A stretch of DNA of 32,000 nt from Candidatus Saccharimonadota bacterium (GTDB lineage Bacteria > Patescibacteriota > Saccharimonadia > Saccharimonadales > Saccharimonadaceae): the NCBI GenBank assembly GCA_000503915.1, contig CP006915.1, forward strand, positions 300,001 to 332,000, read 5' to 3'. Shown here piece by piece: positions 5,117 through 5,303 of this stretch (its first letter is position 1; each line of letters opens with the position of its first letter). The position numbers and the translations under genes were made by a program. Under the pieces are notes generated by a model. It worked only from the letters and a program-made list of their open reading frames with translations, did no database searches and was not told the origin of the DNA.

Positions 5117-5150
5117 AAGAAGAATGACGTCCATTTGGGCGTCATTCTTC
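5117..5150 (+). terminator. Hairpin/terminator right after tRNA-Ser(CGA)
   Basis: 12-bp hairpin agaagaatgacg-tccatttggg-cgtcattcttct, followed by tgtgtt (a weak U tract). Confidence 0.6.
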
Positions 5151-5191
5151 TTGTGTTGGGGTTTGAACCCTCGATTTTGCGAAAGCAAAAT

Positions 5192-5303
5192 ACCGAGGGT
5201 TCGGCAAAAGGAGTGAAACGAAAAAGTGGTTCCATTTTTTCGTAAGCGACTGGAGGAGCGAACAAAGTGAGCGATATCCCTCCCTCTCCCCCAGGCTAGC
5301 CAG
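5192..5303 (+). repeat. Interrupted partial copy of the tRNA-Ser(CGA) 3' part
   Basis: accgagggttcg (5192-5203) equals tRNA 5086-5097. After an 82-nt insert, atccctccctctcc (5286-5299) equals tRNA 5099-5112, followed by c (g in the tRNA) and cca. A perfect hairpin, gaaccctcg...cgagggttc, spans 5165-5201 and contains a D-loop-like ggtttgaac. Confidence 0.85.

Follow-up and report, generated by a model that had tools for sequence, protein, structure and literature searches.

A serine tRNA gene of a Candidatus Saccharimonadota bacterium is followed by a partial copy of itself that is split within the T-loop, and the sequence that splits it belongs to a family found at the same position behind many other tRNA genes. 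The window analyzed here is a stretch of 32,000 nucleotides (nt) from this bacterium (GenBank assembly GCA_000503915.1, contig CP006915.1, positions 300,001 to 332,000 of the forward strand); its genome, of 845 kb, is called G000, other G numbers denote related genomes and L numbers the loci extracted, and positions are those of the window unless a genome is named. Behind tRNA-Ser(CGA), positions 5163-5293 are not a decaying second gene but one unit of a non-coding element that is found across Saccharibacteria and is based on the tRNA gene's 3' part. We document the architecture of this unit, the family to which its insert belongs, the specificity of its site, the conservation of its fold, its occurrence in arrays, and its sharing across tRNA types. 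On balance, the insert is probably a non-coding, non-autonomous insertion or recombination module that operates at the level of DNA, is anchored in tRNA T-loops, and survives only in displaced 3' ends.

The split tRNA copy behind tRNA-Ser(CGA)

The locus comprises the following features, in which R1 is a covariance model of the module and R2 a flank-free profile of it, both described below.

5030-5117 (+): intact tRNA-Ser(CGA) gene with encoded CCA (ARAGORN; Rfam RF00005, 54.8 bits)
5118-5152 (+): terminator-like hairpin AAGAAGAATGACG...CGTCATTCTTCTT, its A-tract arm paired to its T-tract arm (36-nt inverted self-match, 89% identity)
5163-5204 (+): 42-nt inverted repeat TTGAACCCTCGAT / ACCGAGGGTTCGG around ATTTTGC-GAAA-GCAAAAT at 5174-5191 (fold; anchored inverted-repeat score 11 against a control median of 6)
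5192-5203 (+): left block ACCGAGGGTTCG of the partial tRNA copy, tRNA nt 46-57 (ACC, T-stem 5' strand, TTCG), 12/12 against tRNA 5087-5098
5204-5275 (+): 72-nt module of the R1 family (R1 72.7 bits, E = 5e-16 over 5198-5279; R2 39.3 bits)
5276-5289 (+): right block ATCCCTCCCTCTCC, the displaced tRNA 3' end, 14/14 against tRNA 5100-5113

The right block holds A59 and T60, the T-stem 3' strand, and the acceptor 3' strand, and is followed by C in place of G73 and by CCA at 5291-5293; the copy is broken between G57 and A59, with one loop A gone. The initial annotation had recognized both blocks with small errors of position. Its left block stands at 12/12, although the tRNA counterpart is 5087-5098 and not 5086-5097, one position off, and the copy does resume at A59 with a 14/14 match, a substituted discriminator, and CCA, but at 5276-5293, about 10 nt from the claimed 5286-5303. 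The sizes that it gave for the inserts at this locus and at two further serine loci treated below (82 nt at CGA, 31 nt at GCT, and 76 nt at GGA) measure 72 nt (5204-5275), 31 nt, and 75 nt. Genome-wide and on either strand, the two blocks are present only in tRNA-Ser(TGA), tRNA-Ser(CGA), and the CGA-locus copy, where by our own arithmetic the chance expectation across 845 kb is ~0.1 for a 12-mer and ~0.006 for a 14-mer. Because the two collinear blocks fall inside 200 nt, chance identity, which the initial annotation had held out as a possible undoing of its claim, is ruled out for the CGA copy.

The 3' arm of the inverted repeat at 5163-5204 is the copy's own variable region, T-stem 5' strand, and TTCG, and the string ggtttgaac, once read as D-loop-like, lies within its 5' arm. 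No acceptor 5' strand, D-arm, or anticodon arm is found 5' of position 5192, 5163-5191 being palindrome arm and hairpin. What had been suspected to be a decayed whole paralogue is an inverted repeat of the variable region and T-stem 5' strand around a small recurrent hairpin. In the module that follows, a central hairpin at 5218-5243 (ACGAAAAAGTGG-TT-CCATTTTTTCGT) lies between a 5' box, GCAAAAGGAGTGAAA, and a conserved 3' box, GGAGGAGCGAACAAAGTGAGCGAT, which occupies 5252-5275. The 177-nt bounded segment holds no credible gene; its frames of 80-106 amino acids (aa) extend through the tRNA gene itself; a small open reading frame (ORF) after a GGAGGAG box was rejected, being a 10-codon GTG frame at the CGA locus and missing from the copies at the tRNA-Met loci described below.

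The unit has three parts, the first of which is a palindrome of the tRNA's own variable region and T-stem 5' strand around a small conserved hairpin. The second is the conserved two-hairpin module of ~72 nt directly after the T-loop TTCG, and the third is the tRNA from A59 to CCA (with the terminator as well in copies that we take to be young), a direct repeat of the working gene's 3' end.

A closing hairpin of the same style stands behind every unit-carrying tRNA gene among the loci compared. The one at 5118-5152 is separated by a 10-nt spacer from the inverted repeat, and it went uncalled by a simple terminator scan because its T-run sits within the stem. Terminator hairpins behind all tRNA loci examined (for example 4595-4640 and 5114-5155) extend to pair with the encoded CCA (..ACCAAGAAAA...TTTTCTTGGT), so that primary transcripts would have their 3' ends locked into the stem.

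The module family and its place in the T-loop

A BLAST search of the region downstream of tRNA-Ser(CGA) against its own genome gave two matches, each ~95 nt behind a tRNA-Met(CAU) gene.

G000 198062-198138 (+): tRNA-Met(CAU) gene
G000 205541-205618 (-): tRNA-Met(CAU) gene
G000 198233-198313: module homologous to the CGA insert (BLAST, alignment)
G000 205369-205449: module homologous to the CGA insert (BLAST, alignment)

All three loci share one layout, with a T-stem 5' strand, (T/G)TCG, a module of ~71 nt, A(A)TCC, and the local T-stem 3' strand, and in all three the module ends in GGAGGAGCGA(A/G)CA(A/G)AG(T/C)GAGCGAT. When 60 relatives were searched at the DNA level, the module also appeared behind tRNA-Ser(TGA), Gln, Pro, Arg, and Asp, and as an inverted fragment behind tRNA-Leu (L006). 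From an alignment of eleven copies we built R1, which includes the flanks GGTTCG and ATCC. R1 finds six copies in G000, at tRNA-Met (three, including a tandem pair), Ser(CGA), Glu(CTC), and Gly(TCC). Of 61 genomes sampled from the same family, 29 have R1 matches, with up to 15 copies in one genome. Its match at the CGA locus spans the central hairpin and the GGAGGAGCGA..GAGCGAT 3' box. The CGA module carries a central hairpin subtype (ACGAAAAAGTGG..CCATTTTTTCGT) different from that of the Met-locus modules, and its closest relative is the tRNA-Asp module of G071, at 71% identity.

The fold of the module is conserved. Among 41 aligned copies, changes on both sides occur at all 11 modelled pairs and 93% of cells pair, in an alignment that was fitted to the model and so is biased in favor of the structure; this level of pairing was reached by none of 500 shuffles, and slid controls drop to 30-55%. 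On the seed alignment, MAFFT and RNAalifold return the central hairpin with 8 of 11 pairs compensated.

Searches beyond the family place the module almost wholly within this lineage. A gapped pattern run through 596 Gb of the GTDB species set gave 118 matches, of which 80 were retrieved and checked with R1; the loci confirmed among these 80 were only records of Saccharibacteria or Patescibacteria type, two unclassified bins, and one short contig labelled Bdellovibrionales. The remaining pattern matches among the 80 were not confirmed by R1 and were set aside as chance in high-GC genomes. Rfam 15 gave no match to the module at the gathering threshold, only the tRNA genes themselves matching, and over 5118-5330 at E <= 1 it gave only far sub-threshold chance matches and no intron model. 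Two patterns of the conserved boxes had 0 matches in the IMG/VR viral contigs, and full-text searches of the literature found no account of T-loop-split tRNA copies or of the module in Saccharibacteria or the Candidate Phyla Radiation. Judged by these comparisons, the module family appears to be previously undescribed.

The position of the module relative to tRNA genes is specific. By R1, 35 of the 41 copies lie behind an intact tRNA gene on the same strand, mostly 53-103 nt away and farther in arrays, and the tRNAs ahead of them are Ser (four anticodons), Met, Asp, Pro, Gln, Arg (four anticodons), Tyr, and Leu; the CGA module itself starts after TTCG, 81 nt behind tRNA-Ser(CGA), between flanks identical to that tRNA. 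R2, made to remove the bias that the T-loop flanks in R1 could introduce and run on five genomes, recovers the same six copies in G000. Of the R2 matches examined, 26/29 have GGTTCG, GGGTC, or AGTTCG directly on their left and a same-strand tRNA 74-271 nt upstream, and R2 adds Phe, Lys, Glu, and Gly to the tRNA types carrying modules; the family is linked to at least 12 isoacceptor types. Across relatives, A(A)T and the T-stem 3' strand come directly after the module nearly every time, and the junctions follow the sequence of the loop. Where it is of the TTCGAAT type, the copy reads TTCG, the module through GCGAT, and then AT and the T-stem; where it is TTCAAAT or TTCAAGT, the copy reads (G)TC, a module from G through GCGAT, and then AAT or AGT and the T-stem. 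In both junction types exactly one loop A is lost and nothing is duplicated.

Surveying all tRNA genes of G000, we found that seven of the eight downstream self-fragments begin within the T-loop, at positions 56-60, so that the breakpoints are clustered and not random. The initial annotation had called for a site-specific process rather than random decay, and these seven T-loop starts, together with the 26 of 29 flank-free matches at the same spot, bear it out; breakpoints scattered at random around many tRNAs, the outcome that it named as fatal, did not appear in the genome-wide survey, where they cluster in the T-loop instead. The specificity of the breakpoint is real and the evidence supports its attribution to a site-specific process. 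Random decay of a tandem tRNA duplicate, with the likeness of the breakpoints arising by chance, could appeal to the partial tRNA copies that are common around tRNA genes in this genome, but it is refuted by the clustering and by a conserved insert family at the same position in dozens of loci, and we give it almost no credence.

A fixed position within a tRNA loop also recalls an intron. On that account, which the initial annotation had raised, the insert would be an intron-like sequence that interrupts the T-loop of another tRNA-Ser gene and is taken out of the RNA by splicing or processing, and the genome does have a putative tRNA-Asn with an intervening sequence of ~235 nt in its anticodon loop. 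That gene (G000:C1:239783-240092, minus strand, acceptor TCCGGCG..CGCCGGA; ARAGORN -i) is probably tRNA-Asn GUU, and its intervening sequence would explain why no tRNA-Asn was called. The copies studied here, however, have no tRNA 5' half, so no functional spliced product could arise from them; an intact gene of the same isoacceptor always stands just upstream, the discriminator is mutated at the CGA copy, and no Rfam intron model matches. The intron account is largely refuted and highly improbable.

Arrays, spread, and the nature of the unit

The three-part architecture extends across loci. Anchored inverted repeats before modules score a median of 8.5, against 6.0 at random positions, and the complementarity goes past the natural T-stem into the variable region, with 4 extra pairs, for example, at the Met1 and Asp loci. 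In 16/41 instances, at Ser, Gln, Met, Tyr, and Arg loci, the module comes after a TTTGC..GCAAA hairpin; elsewhere the hairpin is GC-rich or, at Arg loci, a conserved pair, GATTCGC-GTA-GCGAATC and CGAACC-GTCAA-GGTTCG. The proposition that the palindrome ends exactly at G57 held only in part, the left arm running through the whole inverted T-loop in 9 of 40 units. Nearly every unit repeats the tRNA 3' end directly from nt 58/59 onward, over a length that varies and that reaches CCA in many; in units that we take to be young the repeat is perfect and runs through the terminator, as over 56 nt at L026 and similarly at L047 and L048.

Units also occur in series. The arrays L075, L077, and L080 read tRNA, terminator A, unit, displaced 3' end with CCA, terminator B, unit, and truncated 3' end, and L078 and L079 stack more tightly. 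At L075 the two blocks of palindrome, module, and repeat are identical and the terminators and spacers unrelated; at L080 the tRNA-derived parts are homologous and the two modules are different variants. A displaced 3' end with its own terminator looks like the former end of a working gene, and a series of them is what we would expect if T-loop events had repeatedly replaced the gene's 3' end.

Several comparisons speak to movement between loci and genomes. Of 34 modules compared, 20 have their closest counterpart behind a tRNA of another type. Modules at Ser(GGA) of G031, Asp and Pro of G015, and Tyr of G086 are 81-86% identical to the Met modules of G000, in different genera, and the non-tRNA DNA around them cannot be aligned with G000; within G000 the Met1 and Met2 modules are 96% identical, yet their tRNA-derived flanks differ. 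Clustering by tRNA type is also present (14/34 observed against 6.6 expected, p ~0.007), as would be expected if modules spread more readily among tRNAs that resemble one another. From the palindrome through the module, over 124 nt, the CGA unit shares 74% identity with the Ser(TGA) unit of G013 and G001, and the 3' halves of tRNA-Ser(CGA) and tRNA-Ser(TGA) are identical. Occupancy varies among relatives that are too diverged for exact edges to be drawn: the Ser(TGA) unit is in G013, G001, and G019 and in neither G000 nor G008, and the Arg(GCG) unit is in G001 (internally deleted) and G013 and not in G000. Inverted module fragments occur at the tRNA-Leu locus (L006) and at 3337-3363 of the window.

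From these data we infer a mobile DNA rather than an RNA, as well as the manner in which it would move. The module would most likely act as DNA, as a non-autonomous element that inserts or recombines and whose target is strictly the T-loop, and the right-hand fragment would be a former or duplicate tRNA 3' end displaced by a recombination event in the T-loop. That the module is seen only in redundant copies would follow because a strike on the working gene would be lethal. Spread between tRNA loci and genomes would most likely proceed by a trans-acting or host function or by recombination in the tRNA-derived flanks. A double crossover between a unit-bearing donor and a naive tRNA gene, with tRNA nt 1-57 as the left arm and nt 58-76 as the right, would yield an intact tRNA, donor terminator, unit, recipient 3' end, and recipient terminator, which is the observed order; such a scheme leaves the module's first entry into a new tRNA type unexplained. 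Sequences of the form d(GCGNAGC) form unusually stable DNA mini-hairpins, and we take the boxes GCGAAGC / GCGTAGC at both module ends to match this motif, as a lead only.

We put forward more tentatively, as a possibility that we doubt more than we credit, that the whole gene-less cassette of ~125-180 nt (palindrome, T-loop module, and spare 3' end) is a new mobile element that repeatedly replaces tRNA 3' ends. A host enzyme of universal occurrence, for which the single Xer recombinase is one candidate, could recognize it as a folded single strand; another route would be natural transformation together with homologous recombination, in which the two halves of the universally conserved T-arm would serve as homology arms.

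A search for enzymes that might serve the module covered Phage_integrase, Resolvase, GIY-YIG, Y1_Tnp, Y2_Tnp, and RVT_1. G000 has one tyrosine recombinase, of Xer type, and no phage-type tyrosine integrase in a Phage_integrase profile search. Five large serine recombinases lie outside the bounded segment, several of them near tRNA genes or tRNA fragments. The genome also has two ORFs with a Y1_Tnp domain and an 83-aa GIY-YIG ORF adjoining tRNA-Lys(UUU), and an RVT_1 search found no reverse transcriptase; a Y2_Tnp search had no match, but none in control genomes either. Y1_Tnp is present in 10 of the 29 module-bearing genomes and absent from G100, G097, and G032. Recombinases of both classes that the initial annotation had in mind are thus present, but Resolvase does not track the module; recombination targeted to the T-loop, one of its two candidate processes, remains the best class of explanation, although no recombinase can be linked to it. 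As none of RVT_1, Resolvase, and Y1_Tnp tracks the module, the module, if mobile, would use a universal host function or recombination via the tRNA-derived flanks.

A number of observations weigh against mobile DNA. Across 61 genomes, the module occurs without regard to RVT_1, Resolvase, or Y1_Tnp (Fisher p = 0.24, 1.0, and 0.14, respectively; the tests are rough, as the genomes are related and their samples not independent). At least one of these enzymes is missing from nearly complete genomes that carry 6-10 copies, G100 having neither reverse transcriptase nor Y1_Tnp; no enzyme is tied to the module, and the sole tyrosine recombinase of G000 is of Xer type. We found no clean filled/empty pair of near-identical strains and no excision product, no clear terminal inverted repeats (the ends share only TCG..CGA), and no target duplication. 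G-T pairs outnumber A-C pairs 17 to 6, the top strand folds better, and orientation with the tRNA is nearly uniform; these three properties suit an RNA or a single-stranded top-strand intermediate as well as they suit recombination of double-stranded DNA. Conservation across genera could likewise be selection for a host function and not mobility.

In the chief rival reading, the unit would work as a structured RNA, transcribed by read-through past the tRNA terminator. Such an RNA would be a trailer in which a long hairpin and the two hairpins of the module are joined to a tRNA-like 3' tail, and it might serve as a processing platform, as a decoy for T-loop- or acceptor-binding enzymes, or as a regulator, and its conservation would reflect selection on the host. 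The compensatory changes at 11/11 modelled pairs, the excess of G-T over A-C pairs, the more stable folds of the top strand, the 35 of 41 copies that are co-oriented with and close behind a tRNA gene, a 141-nt region that folds with z = -4.1, a GNRA-like GAAA loop readable in the small hairpin, and the lack of a dedicated enzyme following the module's distribution all favor it. Yet the opposite strand, folded with DNA parameters, is equally non-random (z = -4.2). Inverted fragments occur, subtypes at 81-86% identity are common to unrelated tRNA types and genera, tandem arrays mix module variants, the tRNA-derived tail is decayed or shortened in many copies, and the module is missing from about half of the related genomes searched. 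No promoter-like site lies within 4600-5600, and this, together with the strong hairpin that closes the tRNA gene directly upstream, ~10 nt away, and the lack of an Rfam match, disfavors an independent RNA gene; the hairpin and the missing promoter weigh against the read-through reading too. We regard a structured RNA as unlikely, though deserving of serious consideration.

The displaced 3' end invites a further explanation, that an integrase-borne island once sat in the T-loop region of tRNA-Ser and was deleted to ~177 nt, with the module as an attP arm. A regenerated tRNA with a displaced 3' fragment is given as a hallmark of tRNA-targeted islands (PMC4383910), and both are present here (5100-5117 against 5276-5293); of the genome's five large serine recombinases, several are encoded close to tRNA genes or to fragments of them. 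Other cassettes stand at tRNA 3' ends in relatives, such as the 613-nt GC-rich cassette at L052 (G013:C1, 4028-4640), which lies exactly at the CCA end of tRNA-Arg(GCG), is bounded by a repeat of GTACCA plus terminator, and is lacking in the sister genome G001. A simple attR junction, however, would not place tRNA sequence on both sides of the module, inside the T-loop of the copy. Furthermore, none of the ~70 units examined encloses an integrase or any other gene, the presence of serine recombinases is unrelated to that of the module, the genome has no phage-type tyrosine integrase, and no viral contig matched. An attachment-site scar is accordingly a poor prospect in our estimation.

The unit can be compared with several known systems. 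The Islander definition of tRNA-targeted islands (PMC4383910) asks for a regenerated tRNA gene and a displaced 3' fragment; here an intact tRNA is followed by a direct repeat of its 3' part from the T-loop, and the arrays resemble repeated integration. Unlike such islands, the segment is ~177 nt long and geneless, places its module inside the displaced copy's T-loop, occurs at no fewer than 12 tRNA types, and has no correlated integrase. Integrase-less cis-mobilizable derivatives of integrative elements are known as CIMEs. Miniature inverted-repeat transposable elements (MITEs), repetitive extragenic palindromes and bacterial interspersed mosaic elements (REP/BIME), and palindromic elements derived from the insertion sequences IS200/IS605 are, like the module, short, non-coding, hairpin-rich, and multi-copy, and they share with it a fixed orientation to a short 5' flank (here TTCG), the lack of target duplication, and one strand that folds better. 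The target of the module, in contrast, is a single tRNA T-loop position and not a dispersed tetranucleotide, and convincing terminal inverted repeats are lacking; the presence of Y1 transposase does not track the module, and one loop A is lost where a MITE would duplicate its target site. Non-canonical archaeal tRNA introns and split or permuted tRNA genes also have an intervening sequence at a fixed T-loop position, but here the host is a bacterium, there is no 5' exon, an intact gene adjoins, and splicing is neither needed nor evident.

Neighboring remnants and significance

Further inserts and remnants in the window lie near the other two serine tRNA genes.

3170-3225 (+): tRNA-Ser(GCT) split copy, with GAGTTCG at 3170-3176, a 31-nt insert at 3177-3207 beginning GGCGAAGCG, and ATCTCCCCTCCTCCGCCA at 3208-3225 (block identity)
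3337-3363 (-): inverted fragment of the R1 3' box, TCGAACGGAGGTGCGAGCAACGCGAGC (partial R1 match, 17.4 bits, E = 0.009)
~3382-3392 (+): further T-loop/T-stem fragment of tRNA-Ser(GCT), CGAATCTCCCC, tRNA nt 73-83 (11-nt match, offset 280), adjoining 3337-3363
26067-26143 (+): weak R1-like module, a candidate lead only (R1 11.8 bits, E = 0.2)
26353-26454 (+): tRNA-Ser(GGA) split copy, with CAGGTTCGA at 26353-26361, a 75-nt insert, and ATCCTGTTCTCTCCGCCA at 26437-26454 (the left block includes A58)

The initial annotation had the same breakpoint at all three serine loci. GCT does break between G57 and A59, as CGA does, but GGA keeps A58 and breaks between A58 and A59. It had also called the three inserts unrelated; BLAST finds no match among them, but the CGA insert belongs to a conserved, covarying family and the GGA insert, to judge by its homologues, to a second recurrent one. 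These homologues lie at the same T-loop position behind tRNA-Ser(CGA) of G074 (77% over 113 nt) and in G083. The first 9 nt of the GCT insert are identical to the 5' end of several R1 copies, and R1 with filters off scores neither the GCT nor the GGA insert. A hammerhead-like CTGATGA..GAAA string in the GCT spacer was rejected, having neither stem II nor an Rfam match.

Fragments upstream of tRNA genes present a second preferred edge. In the survey of G000, upstream 5' tRNA fragments end mostly at nt 11-15, in the D-arm, which we regard as the counterpart of the T-loop breakpoint. The weak match at 26067-26143, upstream of the intact tRNA-Ser(GGA) gene, stands directly after a 13-nt 5' fragment of that tRNA (26060-26072) that is broken in the D-arm. 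Upstream of tRNA-Ser(GCT), a 54-nt sequence is directly repeated with 98% identity, at 2763-2816 and 2891-2944, and each repeat begins with the D-arm string CCCAAGTGGCTG. An ARAGORN call of tRNA-Ser(AGA) at 28288-28383 (-) lies within an 819-aa ORF (27368-29827), has no Rfam support, and is most likely a false positive.

Directly behind the CGA unit lies an ORF of 242 aa (5331-6059) with no Pfam match, ahead of which an extended -10-like string, TGTTAAAAT, stands at 5312-5320. Its homologue follows the Arg unit in G001 and G013 and has no tRNA upstream in G016 and in one metagenome contig; the ORF behaves like movable cargo. Searching by this ORF for orthologues of the CGA locus gave no filled/empty pair, only a congener match at a contig edge and the metagenome contig without a tRNA.

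Elsewhere in G000, the only detectable tRNA-Asp(GTC) (G000:C1:419938-420001, minus strand) agrees with its counterpart in the relative G032 at every position over 64 nt, as far as ...GGTTCGAATCC. After this 9 nt are missing, comprising most of the T-stem 3' and acceptor 3' strands, before CGCCA and the terminator follow, and the gene as written cannot fold; a module-bearing partial tRNA-Asp copy lies ~100 nt downstream. The defect is either a true lesion at the T-loop boundary or an assembly collapse.

If the module is mobile DNA, it would be a gene-less element aimed at one nucleotide position within biology's most conserved hairpin, and one that has spread behind a dozen tRNA types or more in ultra-small symbionts thought to be poor in mobile elements. 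It would then explain the partial self-copies that wrap tRNA genes and the variable genes right behind them. If it is RNA, it would constitute an undescribed family of structured tRNA trailers restricted to Saccharibacteria/Patescibacteria. Either way, the module is an annotation marker for pseudo-tRNA fragments and, some Saccharibacteria now being transformable, a compact sequence for experiments.

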